DNA from: a virus
Length of the DNA stretch: 49,763 nucleotides
Strand: one strand, 5' to 3'
IMG/VR virus record: IMGVR_UViG_3300045988_172460
A model generated the notes under the pieces. That model was not told the origin of the DNA and did no database searches. It was given only the letters and a program-made list of their open reading frames with translations. Shown one piece after another: positions 23,074 through 46,572 of the stretch. How positions within the stretch are numbered: position 1 is the stretch's first letter; each line of letters begins with the position of its first letter. The translations under genes and the position numbers were made by a program.

Positions 23074-23174
23074 CTTATTCCCTCCAAAAATGTAATAATC
23101 CCTCATCTAGGTGTGTCTATATAACCATAGTATTAGATACTTGTACAGTCATCATAGAACATTTATCAACTTAA

Positions 23175-23378
23175 TTATGGTATATGTGATTTGAAATTAT
23201 TCTGAATGTGATAATCCTTAAAAAAGCCATATCCAATGTAAATTAAATCTAGCTTTCTAGACATTTTTTTACTAACAGGTCGTATACATTCAACAATTGC
23301 AAAGTCACGATTTAATTTTACTTCTCGAGTTATTTTTGGTGGGTAATTTTTACTTAAACTTATGTACCAGTAATTCAT
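23175..23378 (-). CDS. Hypothetical protein
   Basis: 67 aa with an AGGGGA SD-like box. No motif recognised. Confidence 0.5.
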   Translation of the reverse strand: MNYWYISLSKNYPPKITREVKLNRDFAIVECIRPVSKKMSRKLDLIYIGYGFFKDYHIQNNFKSHIP

Positions 23379-23569
23379 AATGTATCCCCTATTTAAATTT
23401 GTGTGGAACGCCTAGCCGAATCCACACTGAATAACAATACTAGGTTGCTTGCCTTTTCCTGTTTCCGCAGGCAGGCACTTTGAAAGGAAGGAGTGAAAAT
23501 CGTGTGTCACAGTAGTAGAAACATTTATTGACATATACCGATTTTTTATTTAAGTGGTTTCCCACTTAT

Positions 23570-23653
23570 TGACGTGACAGGAGTCGAACCTGCACAAGCA
23601 ATCACACACCATTGATTAAAAATCAACTGCTCTACCTATTGAGCTACACGTCT
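23570..23653 (-). tRNA. Atypical tRNA-like gene, anticodon UUU (Lys) by position, 17-nt variable region, A1-A72 mismatch
   Basis: Minus strand: AGACGTG-TA-GCTC-AATAGGTA-GAGC-A-GTTGA-TTTTTAA-TCAAT-GGTGTGTGATTGCTTGT-GCAGG-TTCGACT-CCTGT-CACGTCA-A. The D arm and T loop are canonical. Confidence 0.55.
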
Positions 23654-23683
23654 ACCTAATTTACTCGTAATTTGTAGAAAATT

Positions 23684-23719
23684 AGAGGAGGAGGAACACC
23701 TCCTCTCTTGTTTTTTTTT
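23684..23719. other. GA/CT-rich hairpin with T9 on the plus strand and A9 on the minus strand
   Basis: GAGGAGG-aaca-CCTCCTC, then tcttg and TTTTTTTTT on the plus strand. Strand of action unclear. Confidence 0.35.
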
Positions 23720-23812
23720 ACAAGTAAATATTATTAAGCTACTCTACCAACTTAGAATAGGAGAATTTTACCTCTCACCTATAGGTGGGAATGGTTTACA
23801 AAAAAATGAAAT

Positions 23813-41996: not shown

Positions 41997-42278
41997 ATGA
42001 TGACACCATATGAATTGAGAGAAAGATTGAAAAGAGATGTTCCAGAAGTAACAATTTATCCAATATTAACAAACCCATATTATAGTGAAGAAGAATATCA
42101 AGATGTGCTGAAGGATCAATTAAAACCAAAAAAAGACATTGAAACTGATAATATGGTCACACTCCCCTTATTTTCATGGAAAGAAAAAGAATTAAAAATG
42201 GATAAGTTCTATGAAAAAGGCTGGTATAAACCTAAACTTTATACCCTTCCAAAATCTATGTTCAGGAGTGAAGATTAA
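41997..42278 (+). CDS. Hypothetical protein, translationally coupled to the integrase
   Basis: ATG at 41997 after GAAAGGA. 93 aa. TAATG overlap with the int start. Confidence 0.55.
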   Translation: MMTPYELRERLKRDVPEVTIYPILTNPYYSEEEYQDVLKDQLKPKKDIETDNMVTLPLFSWKEKELKMDKFYEKGWYKPKLYTLPKSMFRSED

Positions 42279-43504
42279 TGGCTTCTATAAAATCTTATAA
42301 ATTGAAAAATGGTCAAGAACGTTGGGAATACTTCGTTTCAAATGGACGTAGCAATGGTACTGGCAGGCAACAAAAAATACACAAGAGAGGTTTTAGAAGT
42401 CATAAGGAAGCTTTGAAAGCTGCAAAAATAATTGAAGGGCAAATTGCATCTGAAGAATTCGTTAAAGAAAATCCACAAAAAATGACTATTTCAAAATTTA
42501 TGAATATTTGGATAAACGAATACAAAAATAACGTTAAGGAAGGATCACGAATTGTCTATCGAGATGCTATCCGTATGTATATTGATCCCTATATAGGTAA
42601 TTATCAATTAAATAAATATAAACCTGCGGATCACCAAAAGTTTATTAATAGCTTGTTTACGAATAAAGAACTAGGAAAAAGTAAAAATGGGCTTAGTTAC
42701 AATACAGTAAAAATTGTAAATGCAGCTCTTTCCAATGCATTCAAAAAGGCGCAAAAATTAGGGTATATAAAAAGCAATCCTACCTACTTCGTTGAATTTC
42801 CTTTAGATAAGGTTAAGGAAAAAACAAATAAAGAAAAGAAACTAGAATTCTACACTTTAGAGCAGGAAAATCTATTTCTTGACACTGCTAGAAATTTTGA
42901 CGATTTTATGTGGTATGTATTTTTTTTAATCATTTTCGACTTAGGCTTGCGGAAAGGCGAAGTAATGGCCTTACGATGGTTTAACTTTGATTTTAGAGAT
43001 AATATTCTCACATTTGACAAGCAGCGTTTGTATAGAAAAGAGCAACCTGGTCAAGTAATTTTAGATGATGTTAAAACTGATGCTGGGAAGAGAAGTTTAA
43101 AAATGACAAACAGAGTGAGAAACTCCGTCTTAGAACTCTATAGTATTAATTATGATCTTACAAGTAATGTATTACCCATGACTAACTCAAACCAAGATTT
43201 TTTATTTATCAATCATAGAGGAAAAAACGTTGGCTTGCCTATTCGTCAACGATCCGTTGACACAGCTTGGCACCGTATCATTCAAAAAGCAAACTTACCA
43301 AAAATCAGAATTCATGACGGTCGCCATACTAATGCTGCTCGTTTACGACAAGCAGGAGTTCCACTTGAGGACATTAAAGACATGCTTGGTCATAAGAATG
43401 TTAAAACGACTGAGATATATGCACATGTCTCTCCTGAAGTGAAAGAACGAGCTGTAAATAAACTTGAATTATATCAAATGCAACACAAAAAATCAGGTAA
43501 CTAA
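42278..43504 (+). CDS. int: Tyrosine integrase
   Basis: 408 aa. R (LRKGEVMALRW), HxxR (IHDGRHTNAARL), H..Y (LGHKNVKTTEIYAHV). Followed by attP-like repeats. Confidence 0.9.
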   Translation: MASIKSYKLKNGQERWEYFVSNGRSNGTGRQQKIHKRGFRSHKEALKAAKIIEGQIASEEFVKENPQKMTISKFMNIWINEYKNNVKEGSRIVYRDAIRMYIDPYIGNYQLNKYKPADHQKFINSLFTNKELGKSKNGLSYNTVKIVNAALSNAFKKAQKLGYIKSNPTYFVEFPLDKVKEKTNKEKKLEFYTLEQENLFLDTARNFDDFMWYVFFLIIFDLGLRKGEVMALRWFNFDFRDNILTFDKQRLYRKEQPGQVILDDVKTDAGKRSLKMTNRVRNSVLELYSINYDLTSNVLPMTNSNQDFLFINHRGKNVGLPIRQRSVDTAWHRIIQKANLPKIRIHDGRHTNAARLRQAGVPLEDIKDMLGHKNVKTTEIYAHVSPEVKERAVNKLELYQMQHKKSGN

Positions 43505-43861: not shown

Positions 43862-43891
43862 TAGACAACACGAACATACATTCGGTATAAT
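43862..43891 (+). promoter_or_regulatory. Candidate promoter of the 82-aa ORF: TAGACA-18-TATAAT
   Basis: TAGACA at 43862..43867, TATAAT at 43886..43891. AGGAGGG SD at 43901, ATG at 43915. Confidence 0.5.
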
Positions 43892-43914
43892 TATATTACT
43901 AGGAGGGCGATAGT

Positions 43915-44163
43915 ATGAAAACTAATTATGTAGGAGTAGTTGATAAGATTAGAATGTTAAGTATGTACCCAAAAATGCTAGTTCGATTCTCATTAGTAAC
44001 ACAGGACGAAACTATAAACTGTATCGTCTCGAAAAACGAGCTGGCAAATACGCTACTAATGTTACCTGAACAATCTGAATTAGCGGTCTATGGTCATTTG
44101 AATAAACTAAATCAACTTGTAATTGAAAAAATGCTTGTAAGAAAATCTTTAGTAAATGCATAA
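43915..44163 (+). CDS. Orphan 82-aa protein (OB-fold-like beta pattern, unverified)
   Basis: Strong SD, its own promoter and its own terminator. VGVVDKIRML..MLVRFSLVTQDETINCIVS..ELAVYGHLNKLNQLVIEKM. Confidence 0.65.
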   Translation: MKTNYVGVVDKIRMLSMYPKMLVRFSLVTQDETINCIVSKNELANTLLMLPEQSELAVYGHLNKLNQLVIEKMLVRKSLVNA

Positions 44164-44170
44164 AAAATAA

Positions 44171-44196
44171 GCCTCACTCTTATCTAGGAGCGAGGC
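44171..44196. terminator. Bidirectional terminator between convergent units
   Basis: GCCTCaCTCt-tatcta-gGAGcGAGGC, followed by TTTCGTT on the plus strand and by TTATTTTTTA on the minus strand. Confidence 0.7.
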
Positions 44197-44204
44197 TTTC
44201 GTTA

Positions 44205-44278
44205 TGGACCATACAGGACTCGAACCTGTGACCTAACCGTTATGAGCGGTTGGCTCTAACCGACTGAGCTAATGGTCC
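44205..44278 (-). tRNA. tRNA with anticodon CAU (elongator Met or, more likely, Ile2/lysidine type)
   Basis: GGACCAT-TA-GCTC-AGTCGGTTA-GAGC-C-AACCG-CTCATAA-CGGTT-AGGTC-ACAGG-TTCGAGT-CCTGT-ATGGTCC-A. Perfect 74-nt cloverleaf with no encoded CCA. Has C4:G69 and C5:G68. Confidence 0.9.
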
Positions 44279-44302
44279 TGAAAACTTTACTTATTAAGTA
44301 AT

Positions 44303-44836
44303 CTATAAATTAAATGAAATAAGCTCTAAAGTTAGAATTTTTGCTCTTTTTGATTTAGTAAATGTTGGGCGACTACTCTTTGATACGTAGAAGGTGACTG
44401 GTGCATAGACACAATCGTTTACTTCACGTAATCCAAGTGTTAATATTTTATTTTTATGCGGATGGCTAAAAGCTATGTCTAGTTTCATAGATGAACCAAA
44501 CTTATCTGCTTCAGACACATATATCACTGAATCATTGTATCCCTCTAAAAATATTTCTAGAATAAATTCAAATAGCTCTACTCGATCTTTTATAGTACCA
44601 AAATTGCTGTGCCTTTGCAGATGTTTATATGTAATAACTTCATCATTCAATTTTTGACAAATTATTCTAGGTGAATCCTTATAAATTTTGTGTAAACCCA
44701 ATAAATGTGGGAGTTGTAAGATGTCAAATTTTACATAAAAACAGTCCAGTTTAACAAATGGCGTTGTTATAACAGCCATTTTGCCATCAAGATTTGATAA
44801 AAATAAGTTGTATGTTTTCTGCAAATCTTTAGGCAT
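44303..44836 (-). CDS. Orphan 177-aa protein (function unknown, possible small RNA-targeting enzyme)
   Basis: AGGAG 8 nt before the ATG. Preceded by a structured leader and followed 24 nt later by the tRNA(CAU). I cannot assign any catalytic motif. His-containing patches LPHLLGLHK and AFSHPHKNK. Confidence 0.7.
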   Translation of the reverse strand: MPKDLQKTYNLFLSNLDGKMAVITTPFVKLDCFYVKFDILQLPHLLGLHKIYKDSPRIICQKLNDEVITYKHLQRHSNFGTIKDRVELFEFILEIFLEGYNDSVIYVSEADKFGSSMKLDIAFSHPHKNKILTLGLREVNDCVYAPVTFYVSKSSRPTFTKSKRAKILTLELISFNL

Positions 44837-44865
44837 TTTTACAACTCCTCTATAATTTTAGACAT

Positions 44866-44950
44866 AAAAAAAAAGAGTGCAAATCATGGATACCGTCCCA
44901 TGCTGACCAACGCTAGGTTAACCCACCTGCTGGGGAACGTGGGTGCACTC
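44866..44950 (-). ncRNA. Structured 5' leader element: 76-nt four-way junction closed by a 7-bp helix plus U9
   Basis: Minus strand: GAGTGCA-CCCAC(12-nt loop)GTGGG-TTAACCTAGCGTTGGTCAG-CATGG(8-nt loop)CCATG-att-TGCACTC-UUUUUUUUU. Lies 30 nt upstream of the ORF177 start. Confidence 0.55.
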
Positions 44951-45026
44951 AATTCCCACTTTGCTTGTAAATAATGATCTAAAGCTAGACTAGAAAACGA
45001 GGTAATGATATCCTTTCCTCACACTT

Positions 45027-45055
45027 AATATAACATCTAAATGTATCGTATGCAA
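45027..45055 (-). promoter_or_regulatory. Candidate sigma70-type promoter of the leader-ORF177-tRNA operon: TTGCAT-17-TATATT
   Basis: -35 is the reverse complement of 45050..45055 and -10 the reverse complement of 45027..45032. Exact 17-nt spacer. Located downstream of the lysis-cassette terminator. Confidence 0.55.
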
Positions 45056-45184
45056 TAAAAATATCTCATGAAATTATTTAAAATACAGCATAAAAACAAG
45101 TTTAAGAAGATTTTTTCACTTACAAACACGTAAATGTGCCTGATCATCAGCTGGTTGCCATATTGTTAATTTTAATTAAATAAC

Positions 45185-45216
45185 AAAAAAAAGAGTCACC
45201 TTTGGGAAGGCGACTC
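45185..45216 (-). terminator. Rho-independent terminator of the lysis cassette
   Basis: Minus strand GAGTCGCC-ttcccaaa-GGTGACTC (8 bp, one G-U) followed by T8. Confidence 0.8.
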
Positions 45217-45230
45217 AAAGAAAGTTATTC

Positions 45231-46316
45231 TTAGTATCCAGTTCCCCAGGTATTCGATGGATTTCCATCATTTGGGCCAACTGGAATATAAATGCGTGTT
45301 CCGTTTACATCAGAGCCACCTAAGAAAACATAGCCATCTGCTACACGAACTGAATCATACTTAAAAGTAGAACCTTTCGGCCATACTCCGTATACAGGCG
45401 CTAACAAGCTTGGCGCACCGTTGCGAAGAACGATACCTTCACTAACACCGATAGTAAAAGTTTTTGCTGGCGTTGGTTTACTATTTTCCCATAGCTCAGC
45501 AATATCACCATCGTTTGCATAACCTAATAATTTACCACTATTTTCGATACGATACAAGTTTTTACGGCCATTTAGTTTTTGTGTAATGGTTCCAACCTGT
45601 GTCCATAAAGTATTAGCATTGATATGTTGTTCAATTGGCGCATCTGGATTTTTGTAGATTGTTGTAAAGCGAACGTGCTGCCCAACTTTGTATTTTGGTG
45701 CGTTCGGCTTGCCAGGGTTTACAATAACATCCGAGCCATCTTCTGGAAGTCCTGTTTGTAAATCTTGTGCAAACTGTGCCTTACTAATCCCCCAAGATGC
45801 CAAATAGCCATAAGGGTCTGTGTGATTTCCACCTAAATTGTTTGTCACCCACAAATGAGTTTTTATGCCGTAGCCTGTCGGATCGTCTAAATCAAACGTC
45901 ACATTAATTTGACGTGCTAAATCACGTAATAAGTTAACGTAAGCTGCATAGTCTTTCTTAAACATAGCTTTATCTGAAGTATTGGCTAATTCGACTTGTG
46001 CATAAGCATAAGGGTTTGCATCTCCTGCTCCCCAAGCTATACGACCGTTTTCCGCTACCTGAAGCACACGGCCCCCTCCACCTACAACATATTGCGTAAA
46101 CGCTTCTTGTCGTTGCCAGTTGTTAAGCATGTTATTGGCTTCGTTTTCTACACCAGCGTCCATATTTGCAGTATCATGCGCAATGATGTATCGATTAACT
46201 GTTGATGGCCAACCTGCGTTAATATTTCCGCGGGTTTCTACTTGGTAAGCATCTACATTGATTGCAGGCATAAAAAATAGAGCGACAAGCGCTCCAACTA
46301 AAATTTTCTTTTTCAT
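45231..46316 (-). CDS. Endolysin: N-acetylmuramoyl-L-alanine amidase (PGRP/Amidase_2 type) with N-terminal signal peptide and two SH3b-like repeats
   Basis: MKKKILVGALVALFFMPAINVDA-YQ signal peptide. IIAHDTAN...GGNHTDPYGY zinc-amidase motifs. C-terminal repeats KVGQHVRF...LYRI and GIVLRNG...VRVADGYVFLG. Confidence 0.8.
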   Translation of the reverse strand: MKKKILVGALVALFFMPAINVDAYQVETRGNINAGWPSTVNRYIIAHDTANMDAGVENEANNMLNNWQRQEAFTQYVVGGGGRVLQVAENGRIAWGAGDANPYAYAQVELANTSDKAMFKKDYAAYVNLLRDLARQINVTFDLDDPTGYGIKTHLWVTNNLGGNHTDPYGYLASWGISKAQFAQDLQTGLPEDGSDVIVNPGKPNAPKYKVGQHVRFTTIYKNPDAPIEQHINANTLWTQVGTITQKLNGRKNLYRIENSGKLLGYANDGDIAELWENSKPTPAKTFTIGVSEGIVLRNGAPSLLAPVYGVWPKGSTFKYDSVRVADGYVFLGGSDVNGTRIYIPVGPNDGNPSNTWGTGY

Positions 46317-46345: not shown

Positions 46346-46376
46346 AAAAAAAGAAGCCATTTTAGAATGACTTCTT
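46346..46376 (-). terminator. Hairpin plus U tract between the holin and endolysin genes
   Basis: Minus strand AAGAAGTCA-ttctaaaa-TGGCTTCTT (9 bp, one G-U), then TTTTT. Overlaps the holin stop codon. Confidence 0.55.
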
Positions 46377-46572
46377 AATTACCTCTATTTGAATCAACAA
46401 ATCCTTCACCAACAATATATGCAGCTAATAAGCCAATAGCTGCTACTAAAGTGACCACTTTTTCAGATGTTAAATCATCCACATTAAAAACTGCTAACAA
46501 AGCAACGATTACTCCTGTCACTGCAGCCCAAAACTTTCTGCTTGTGAATTTATGTTTCCAATTAATTTTCAT
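46375..46572 (-). CDS. Holin (phiLC3/LL-H-like, 2 TM)
   Basis: 65 aa. MKINWKHKFTSRKFW N-terminus, two hydrophobic helices, charged C-terminus. AGGAGG SD. Confidence 0.75.
   Translation of the reverse strand: MKINWKHKFTSRKFWAAVTGVIVALLAVFNVDDLTSEKVVTLVAAIGLLAAYIVGEGFVDSNRGN

Follow-up and report, generated by a model that had tools for sequence, protein, structure and literature searches.

A structured leader RNA, encoded on the minus strand of the viral record IMGVR_UViG_3300045988_172460 (49,763 nucleotides (nt), referred to at its full length as the window), precedes open reading frame (ORF) 177, whose product belongs to the PBECR4 family of predicted ribonucleases (RNases). Comparison with homologous loci indicates that this element, which Rfam does not detect, is probably a new member of a catalogued, functionally orphan RNA family, that of rli62 (RF01486) and Bacilli-1 (RF02931). 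For the rli62/Bacilli-1 family, these comparisons correct the architecture to one with two pseudoknots and supply a protein partner that is consistently present. The RNA is the fixed upstream partner of the PBECR4 gene, in a slot that follows the lysis cassette. We propose a dual role, in which the RNA attenuates the RNase gene and possibly neutralizes the RNase itself; taken as a whole, we rate this statement as slightly short of an even bet, with high confidence in the structure and the linkage, moderate confidence in termination, and less in neutralization.

Covariation points to a double pseudoknot in the leader RNA core

Homologous loci were gathered through protein searches, degenerate-pattern scans of viral and genome collections, and exact look-ups of metagenomic contigs. 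Base pairing was counted for both candidate structures, i.e. the cloverleaf of an earlier reading of the sequence (hereafter the original prediction) and the pseudoknotted fold, in two alignments, one of 17 sequences built with MAFFT and one of 20 sequences built from a covariance model. The pseudoknot helix PK1 is absent from the model behind the latter alignment, which is thus not biased toward it. The core has the following parts:

44955..44959, minus strand: PK1 5' strand GUGGG, pairing with CCCAC 44943-44939
44944..44950, minus strand: P1 (closing helix) 5' strand GAGUGCA
44939..44943, minus strand: PK1 3' strand CCCAC, abutting the P1 5' strand with 0 nt between
44922..44935, minus strand: Pa hairpin, CCCC 44935-44932 with G44926 and GGG 44924-44922, U44925 bulged, loop AGCAG
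44903..44921, minus strand: highly conserved junction UUAACCUAGCGUUGGUCAG, holding the PK2 5' strand GUC 44907-44905
44885..44902, minus strand: P3 hairpin CAUGG/CCAUG, with a conserved 8-nt loop GACGGUAU
44875..44881, minus strand: P1 3' strand UGCACUC

PK1 is paired in 98.9% of alignment cells, with double changes at three of its five pairs and the variants GUGAG/CUCAC, GUGGC/GCCAC, GUGGU/ACCAC and GUAGC/GCUAC among the homologues, while P1 is paired in 99.2% of cells and has two compensatory pairs (A-U to G-C and U-A to C-G). P3 is paired throughout (100% of cells), again with double changes at three of five pairs (UAUGG/CCAUA, CGUGG/CCACG, UGUAG/CUACA). In an alignment of 19 distinct homologues these three helices are 99-100% paired, and eight of their pairs carry compensatory double changes. 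Pa is likewise paired in 100% of cells; a double change (C-G to A-U) and a wobble occur once each, and its bulge and loop positions are free to vary. The second pseudoknot helix, PK2, joins the junction GUC (44907-44905) to GAC, the first three bases of the P3 loop (44897-44895), with a middle pair that is U-A in 15 sequences and C-G in four. For all helices together, 99.6% of cells are paired and 10 pairs show double changes, a result that none of 500 shuffles matched, and slid controls were paired in 29-55% of cells. Several unpaired positions are equally constrained, as AGCGUU and the G.C of the junction do not vary across the 19 homologues.

Along the strand, the 5' half of PK1 is followed by a 2-5-nt loop, the 5' half of P1, the 3' half of PK1 without any intervening nucleotide, a long loop, and the 3' half of P1. 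As indicated by this order and by the covariation, PK1 and P1 form an H-type pseudoknot, and PK2 and P3 repeat that design. From what is established for H-type pseudoknots, the loop lengths of the PK1/P1 arrangement should be sterically adequate, and PK1 can stack on P1. A candidate tertiary pair between the Pa loop and the junction (columns 42 and 57 of alignment A5) had the support of a single lineage and was for that reason not adopted. Folding for minimum free energy (MFE) was also set aside, since the resulting structures were inconsistent among the window and its homologues and contained no pseudoknots; for the window sequence it yields a long irregular hairpin (z = -2.6) that has only the 7-bp closing helix in common with the cloverleaf drawing.

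Conservation of the element is far above chance, and is stronger in the core than in the adjacent gene or the flanks. In a comparison of 13 loci with the window, identity is 75-94% for the core, 61-86% for the gene DNA and 57-74% for the 5' part of the leader, and in close relatives, where the flanking intergenic DNA has diverged, the block from CAAAGTGGG through the U tract is nearly invariant. The assignment to the minus strand in the original prediction agrees with the promoter, the U tract, the downstream gene and the G-U pairs of the homologues, which would become A-C on the opposite strand.

The original prediction had drawn a tRNA-sized four-way junction, parts of which hold up. The minus-strand letters it quoted for 44950..44875, with nine T following (44874..44866), match the sequence exactly, and its closing helix (44950-44944/44881-44875) and its hairpin at 44902-44898/44889-44885 are the covarying P1 and P3. 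Another of its hairpins, CCCAC (44943-44939) with GTGGG (44926-44922), can be drawn in the window; it is paired in 84.7% of cells, 9 of 17 homologues break its A-U pair, and CCCAC covaries with the upstream GTGGG instead. Its central arm, TAACC/GGTCA, is paired in 54% of cells, with one position that is never paired. As two of the four arms fail the comparative test, the four-way cloverleaf is not real. The proposal that a second GTGGG (44959-44955) pairs with CCCAC was correct, this being the conserved partner. The two mutually exclusive folds built on that pairing find no support, because PK1 and P1 share no nucleotides and are conserved together, and the downstream hairpin that was to compete as a switch partner is not conserved.

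The likeness to a tRNA comes down to the length of 76 nt and a 7-bp closing helix; pseudoknots take the place of the four-way junction, and D, anticodon and T arms are absent. ARAGORN and the Rfam tRNA model (RF00005) both skip the element and call the two true tRNAs of the window, and no Rfam family matched the element, either at the gathering threshold in a scan of the whole window or at E <= 10 within 44100-45300. HDV-like, twister and other ribozymes and a T-box were likewise discarded, as they lack Rfam support and differ in strand order. We consider it extremely improbable that the element is a cloverleaf of tRNA size, or a mimic of tRNA, switching between two exclusive folds and possibly sensing a tRNA. 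Its length, the four helices that can be drawn in the window sequence, the tRNA-Met gene downstream, and the cleavage of tRNAs by BECR RNases such as colicins D and E5 (PMC5512222) would fit such an RNA; two of its four arms fail covariation, neither a tRNA nor a T-box match was obtained, and the tRNA neighbors vary by locus and mark attachment sites. These neighbors (Met, Cys, Glu, tmRNA or none) and a segment common to the phiFL phages identify the tRNA-Met as an attachment-site feature, and it was therefore rejected as a partner.

The RNA is tied to a family of predicted RNases

At every locus with sufficient upstream sequence, an RNA alignable to 44968-44862 precedes the gene, down to 38% protein identity, the loci including Enterococcus durans, E. 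lemanii, Tetragenococcus halophilus, Lacticaseibacillus suibinensis and metagenomic contigs. Further loci were obtained by scanning viral and metagenome contigs with a DNA pattern for the RNA core. A covariance model (R1) finds one copy in the window and 34 credible copies over 355 kb of collected loci, 30 of which lie 18-35 nt upstream of a PBECR4 homologue (38-100% identity). A search with the leader DNA against isolated phage genomes gave no match, and megablast of the leader region matched only the tRNA-Met/attachment segment. Two contigs (L037, positions 1-35, and L060, IMGVR_UViG_3300045988_138840) begin with TCGTCGGCAGCGTCAGATGTGTATAAGAGACAG, which we take to be a Nextera transposase adapter, presumably an assembly artefact that truncates the leader in both.

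The gene that follows the RNA in the window is:

44836-44303, minus strand: ORF177, PBECR4-family protein, predicted BECR-fold RNase (Pfam PF18813)

ORF177 matches PF18813 with E = 6.9e-10 and 40 bits (cut-off 27) and belongs to PHROG 3446, of unknown function; searches of NCBIfam and of PDB sequences were uninformative. Iyer et al. predicted the PBECR4 family to be BECR-fold RNases, and the active site proposed for PBECR domains consists of a His and a C-terminal Thr/Ser (PMC5512222). Three residues, His44 (in PHLLG), Arg85 and Thr148, do not vary even in homologues of only 24% identity, and the invariance of His44 and Thr148 fits that active site. The AlphaFold2 (AF2) model of ORF177 is confident, with a predicted local distance difference test (pLDDT) score of 92.6. 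No conserved protein partner flanks the PBECR4 gene in the loci compared.

Copies without the gene were also found. In one locus (L104, 464-570) the 3' strand of P1 is lost, and a small ORF beginning MNK stands in place of PBECR4. On an Enterococcus faecalis megaplasmid (LR962543.1; L118, 2501-2646) an orphan leader lies among transposase fragments, again with an MNK... small ORF replacing PBECR4, and its core is mutated at invariant positions (AGCG to AGTA, P3 3' strand broken); at least this megaplasmid copy looks like a remnant that is decaying after loss of PBECR4.

In three Enterococcus-type phage contigs (L067, L087 and L089) a 70-nt core with 0-1 difference from the E. faecium-type leader is found inside an ORF-free, internally repetitive region of 500-840 nt, downstream of terS or of terS and a DNA methyltransferase gene (L067:1-843, minus strand, ~840 nt; L087:6250-6737, at least 490 nt to the contig end; L089:1931-2032). 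The region has its own -10-like box and terminator, internal repeats of ~256-270 nt and recurring GAGTTGGAAACCTTA hairpins, and the grafted core has taken the place of a plain hairpin within one of the repeat units. No Rfam family matches the region, which could be a large phage non-coding RNA that carries a decoy copy of the core.

A strict co-occurrence and co-divergence with PBECR4, along with a compact, conserved tertiary fold, would also be expected if the RNA were a cofactor or substrate of the protein, forming a ribonucleoprotein in which the RNA targets, activates or is processed, e.g. as a sensor-effector for superinfection exclusion, and copies that lack a terminator would share one transcript with the gene and would have to be processed. 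The core, however, shows no guide-like variable segment (the variable parts being the 5' hairpins H1 and H2 described below), and RNA cofactors have no precedent among BECR-fold RNases (PMC5512222; bioRxiv 10.64898/2026.08.28.747851), and we view this explanation as distinctly unlikely.

Promoter and 5' hairpins define a predicted transcript

Upstream of the core, the leader comprises:

45027..45055, minus strand: sigma-A-type promoter, -35 element TTGCAT (45055-45050), 17-nt spacer, extended -10 element TGtTATATT (45035-45027)
44999..45020, minus strand: H1 hairpin at the transcript 5' end, with a purine-rich 5' strand, GAGG...CCUC, from folding of homologues
44963..44985, minus strand: H2 hairpin, variable in sequence, stopping just ahead of a conserved CAAAG

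The original prediction of a structured minus-strand leader RNA with a promoter of its own is borne out by the homologues, in which the TTGC.. -35 and TGnTATATT -10 elements stay in register although the surrounding DNA fails to align. A consensus promoter scan did not list this promoter, whose -35 element matches at only 3 of 6 positions. Transcription would start near 45020, which gives, on these features, a minus-strand transcript of ~155 nt running from ~45020 to 44866. Of the 15 homologues folded, most have a predicted hairpin at the H1 position, differing in sequence, and H1 may serve as a 5' stabilizer; one at the H2 position is predicted in at least 12 of the 15, with unrelated sequences, e.g. 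GACACCAGATGGTGTC, GGTCTTTAAGACC and GATCATTCGTGATC. The ~155-nt unit holds no conserved or plausible ORF, only short TTG/ATG ORFs of 21-36 aa, and a coding leader was rejected on this ground and because substitutions track base pairing. In Lacticaseibacillus leaders (L018:~2340-2375; L108:~1350-1385) the H1 3' strand and linker read CACCTCCTTTCT, which we take to equal the anti-Shine-Dalgarno 3' end of 16S rRNA and which could be an anti-Shine-Dalgarno element or a coincidence; Enterococcus leaders keep CCUC...CUUUC.

The leader is probably a diverged member of the rli62/Bacilli-1 family

PBECR4 homologues of 27-28% identity follow the lysis genes in the isolated Listeria phage A500, Staphylococcus phage StauST398-5 and a group B Streptococcus (GBS) phage. 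The leaders of two of these match Rfam families, that of A500 being RF01486 (rli62, 142.5 bits) and that of the GBS phage RF02931 (Bacilli-1, 81.8 bits), and the Staphylococcus phage leader has a weak rli62 match (29 bits, E = 0.039). The gene order in A500 is hol, ply, the rli62 match and gp26, and in the GBS phage the Bacilli-1 match lies ahead of a gene annotated as 'Lmo2277 protein'; the window shows the corresponding order of lysin (45231-46316), leader RNA and ORF177. In the reverse direction, R1 matches the A500 locus with E = 0.0016 and a divergent locus (L106) with E = 0.0006, and the rli62 model matches L106 with E = 0.023, all of these being below curated thresholds. From synteny and these matches, the leader RNA is probably a diverged member of the rli62/Bacilli-1 family.

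The shared features are the slot, which in a temperate phage follows the holin and endolysin genes and immediately precedes a PBECR4/Lmo2277-family gene, and an architecture of promoter, purine-rich hairpin, second hairpin, a helix that loops the 5' strand of the closing helix, and a C/G hairpin. By eye, all three distant leaders contain a promoter, a purine-rich H1, an H2, and a PK1 enclosing the 5' strand of the closing helix, namely TATAG/CTATA in A500, TATACAAT/ATTGTATA in the Staphylococcus phage and GTATGA/TCATAC in the GBS phage. A naive scan of these leaders for PK1 plus P1 finds the helices seen by eye, at scores not better than in shuffles. The A500 and Staphylococcus leaders also have a C.GUUGGUC junction and a hairpin with GAC in its loop; the GBS leader has a more divergent junction (CGUUAGCC) and no GAC in its loop. 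The Rfam structures differ from ours in being nested only; they draw PK1 as a plain stem-loop and annotate neither P1 and P3 nor either pseudoknot, and the Bacilli-1 model ends before the 3' half of the element.

rli62 is an expressed small RNA from the A118-like prophage region of an L. monocytogenes lysogen (PMC3105390), with a pattern across Listeria genomes that suggests horizontal transfer (PMC5689173). Rfam classes rli62 as 'Cis-reg' and Bacilli-1 as 'Gene; sRNA'. The literature that could be searched states neither a function nor a PBECR4 link for rli62 and Bacilli-1, and gives no function for lmo2277. In phage A500 a match to a second small RNA, rli34 (RF01466, 75.7 bits), lies just downstream of the PBECR4-like gp26 on the opposite strand (L115:2319-2402, minus strand), within the same moron region.

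The detection of rli62 as a small RNA (PMC3105390), the Rfam class of Bacilli-1, and a promoter and putative terminator of its own would also suit an independent prophage small RNA that base-pairs with host or phage mRNAs and precedes PBECR4 only through a shared transcription unit. Against it stand the link to one protein family across at least 6 genera, down to 27-28% identity, and the decay of at least one gene-less copy, and the most conserved bases lie inside the pseudoknotted fold instead of in an accessible seed; we hold it to be highly unlikely.

Termination may limit expression of the RNase gene

Between the core and the gene lie:

44866..44874, minus strand: U9 tract right after P1, with which it forms a putative non-canonical intrinsic terminator
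44850-44845, minus strand: ribosome-binding site (RBS) GAGGAG ahead of ORF177

P1 has 7 bp, of which 4 are G-C, and encloses 62 structured nt. A terminator made of this helix and U9, ~30 nt ahead of ORF177, had been part of the original prediction, and its position is as described there; the U tract is not universal among homologues. The Enterococcus and Tetragenococcus copies, as well as two further loci (L105 and L111), retain a run of T8-T12, which is weak in L106. The Listeria and Staphylococcus phage versions have an extra classical terminator between RNA and gene, and these inserted terminators support attenuation as a recurrent feature. Nothing promoter-like is conserved among homologues between the terminator and the RBS of ORF177. 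A candidate promoter, TTTGCA-17-TAAAAT at 44883-44855, was rejected, as its start would fall inside the RBS and it is not conserved in homologues. Since ORF177 has no conserved promoter of its own, its expression would need read-through.

Attenuation could be the whole story, in which case the element would be a purely cis-acting riboswitch or protein-controlled leader, perhaps under feedback by PBECR4, where a bound small molecule or factor stabilizes P1 and stops transcription at U9, while polymerase that meets no such factor continues into the RNase gene, with no role in trans. AGCGUU and the GACGGUAU loop, unpaired yet near-invariant, look like the binding pockets of other RNAs, P1 is at once the closing helix and the putative terminator stem, the RNA stands in cis 18-35 nt from the PBECR4 gene, at least one gene-less copy is decaying, and rli62 is 'Cis-reg' in Rfam. 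Yet no antiterminator pairing is conserved and the sole competing helix that was proposed fails covariation, several lineages have no terminator at all and their RBS is not near the domain, no known riboswitch class in Rfam matches, a metabolic logic is lacking for a phage RNase gene, and an identical core also lies in a different non-coding region, with no PBECR4 gene nearby. On balance we regard a purely cis-acting attenuator as unlikely.

A proposed dual role in attenuation and neutralization

Under the dual role that we favor, P1 and the U9 tract after it would stop RNA polymerase once the domain has folded, with the result that most transcripts would end as a free small RNA and read-through transcripts alone would carry the RNase gene. 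More speculatively, the free RNA may bind PBECR4 and keep the RNase inactive in the lysogen, and loss or dilution of the RNA, e.g. during superinfection, would release it.

Two kinds of known system resemble this arrangement. Type III toxin-antitoxin loci consist of a constitutive promoter, an RNA that forms pseudoknots, an endoribonuclease toxin gene and, between these two, a terminator by which the RNA-to-toxin ratio is set, and are often phage- or plasmid-borne modules that act in abortive infection (PMC3401426). As in ToxIN, CptIN and TenpIN, a promoter here lies upstream of a pseudoknotted RNA, with a predicted RNase gene after it, the terminator being putative in our case. The RNAs of these systems, in contrast, are tandem 34-45-nt repeats cut by the toxin, whereas here there is a single non-repetitive RNA of ~155 nt, and their toxins are ToxN, CptN and TenpN, whereas ORF177 matches Pfam PBECR4 only. 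Given the lack of tandem repeats and the different toxin family, the locus falls outside the type III families.

The second is RCd22-AbiF of the Clostridioides difficile phi027 prophage, where an RNA located between the holin gene and abiF terminates in cis and neutralizes the toxin in trans by binding it (PMC12373285). RCd22 has a SigA promoter, a structured RNA of ~100-130 nt and a Rho-independent terminator, the short RNA being dominant and read-through rare, and its effector gene lacks a promoter (PMC12373285). Our locus is similarly placed between lysis genes and an effector gene at the prophage end, and also combines a promoter for the RNA with an effector gene that has no conserved one. 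It differs in that no match to the abiF motif (RF03085) was found, in that AbiF belongs to the Abi_2/AbiD/F family as opposed to the BECR fold, and in that the helix closing the RNA domain would itself serve as the terminator stem.

Several observations weigh against the proposed dual role and its premises. With regard to the RNA, the invariant unpaired nucleotides would equally suit a ligand-binding aptamer. Tandem Repeats Finder (minimum score 30) reported nothing in 44250-45300, and no relevant direct repeats were seen; we know of no established type III antitoxin that lacks tandem repeats. The window has no RF01486 or RF02931 match at the gathering threshold, nor, within 44100-45300, at E <= 10, and homology to rli62/Bacilli-1 would have to be argued from synteny and weak reciprocal matches (E = 0.0006-0.04). 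With regard to the protein, Foldseek against the PDB returned nothing significant (best E = 0.42, BrnT), the RNase toxins BrnT, RegB, HigB and CdiA-CT appearing among insignificant matches only, which leaves the RNase fold as a profile-based prediction, and ORF177 had no match in PADLOC. With regard to termination, a terminator scan did not call P1 and U9, the 'loop' of P1 being 62 nt and not that of a canonical hairpin, and the U tract is absent in Lacticaseibacillus and other copies (L018, L108 and L109). Because Lacticaseibacillus and two other lineages are without any terminator, termination alone cannot explain the conservation of the fold.

A broader, tentative and rather doubtful extension is that the rli62, Bacilli-1 and Enterococcus leaders, together with PBECR4, constitute a widespread and so far unrecognized class of RNA-protein toxin-antitoxin or abortive-infection systems in temperate Firmicutes phages, in which a single-copy double-pseudoknot RNA, as opposed to a repeat array, both attenuates transcription of a BECR-fold RNase and neutralizes it; other phages may carry the core as a decoy that disarms the RNase, the grafted cores of L067, L087 and L089 being an example. 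The present reading would provide two orphan Rfam families, rli62 and Bacilli-1, with a function and a protein partner, and tie them to a third, unannotated enterococcal group. If the antitoxin reading is true, the type III-like RNA-antitoxin systems would come to include another toxin fold as well as RNAs without repeats, and prophages of Enterococcus, Listeria, Staphylococcus and Streptococcus would share a common module for lysogenic conversion or superinfection exclusion. A common exclusion module of this kind would bear on phage host range, in the laboratory as well as in therapy.

Genomic setting of the locus

Judging from its megablast matches, which are Enterococcus phages throughout, and from its minus strand, which carries ORFs with almost no interruption, the window represents a temperate phage or prophage of Enterococcus faecalis. 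The neighborhood of the leader RNA contains:

46375-46572, minus strand: holin-sized ORF of 65 aa, without annotation here
45231-46316, minus strand: endolysin (Amidase_2 and SH3_5)
45216-45193, minus strand: classical terminator between the endolysin gene and the leader RNA
44278-44205, minus strand: tRNA-Met, downstream of ORF177, with another terminator after it
42278-43504: integrase, convergent with the leader RNA/ORF177 cassette

From this local gene order (lysis genes, leader RNA, ORF177, tRNA-Met, integrase), the leader RNA occupies a 'moron' slot, with the lysis cassette on one side and the attachment site on the other. The tRNA-Met(CAT) and a few flanking bases (44197-44284) are 93-96% identical to unannotated segments of 80-87 bp in Enterococcus phages, which lie near one record end in phiFL1-3 and EFC-1 and internally in IME197, and this stretch is probably a shared attP/tRNA-Met integration site. 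Between the integrase gene and the tRNA-Met, on the plus strand (43862-44163), an ORF of 82 aa (PHROG 15227, function unknown) has a strong promoter-like site ahead of it (TAGACA-18-TATAAT, 11 of 12 matches) and is convergent with the PBECR4 cassette. Elsewhere in the window, within the noncoding stretch 23107-23812, a tRNA-Lys(UUU) (23568-23654, minus strand; 58.9 bits to RF00005) is unusual for a phage-borne tRNA, as 14 nt are inserted in its variable-loop region and the first pair of its acceptor stem is mismatched.

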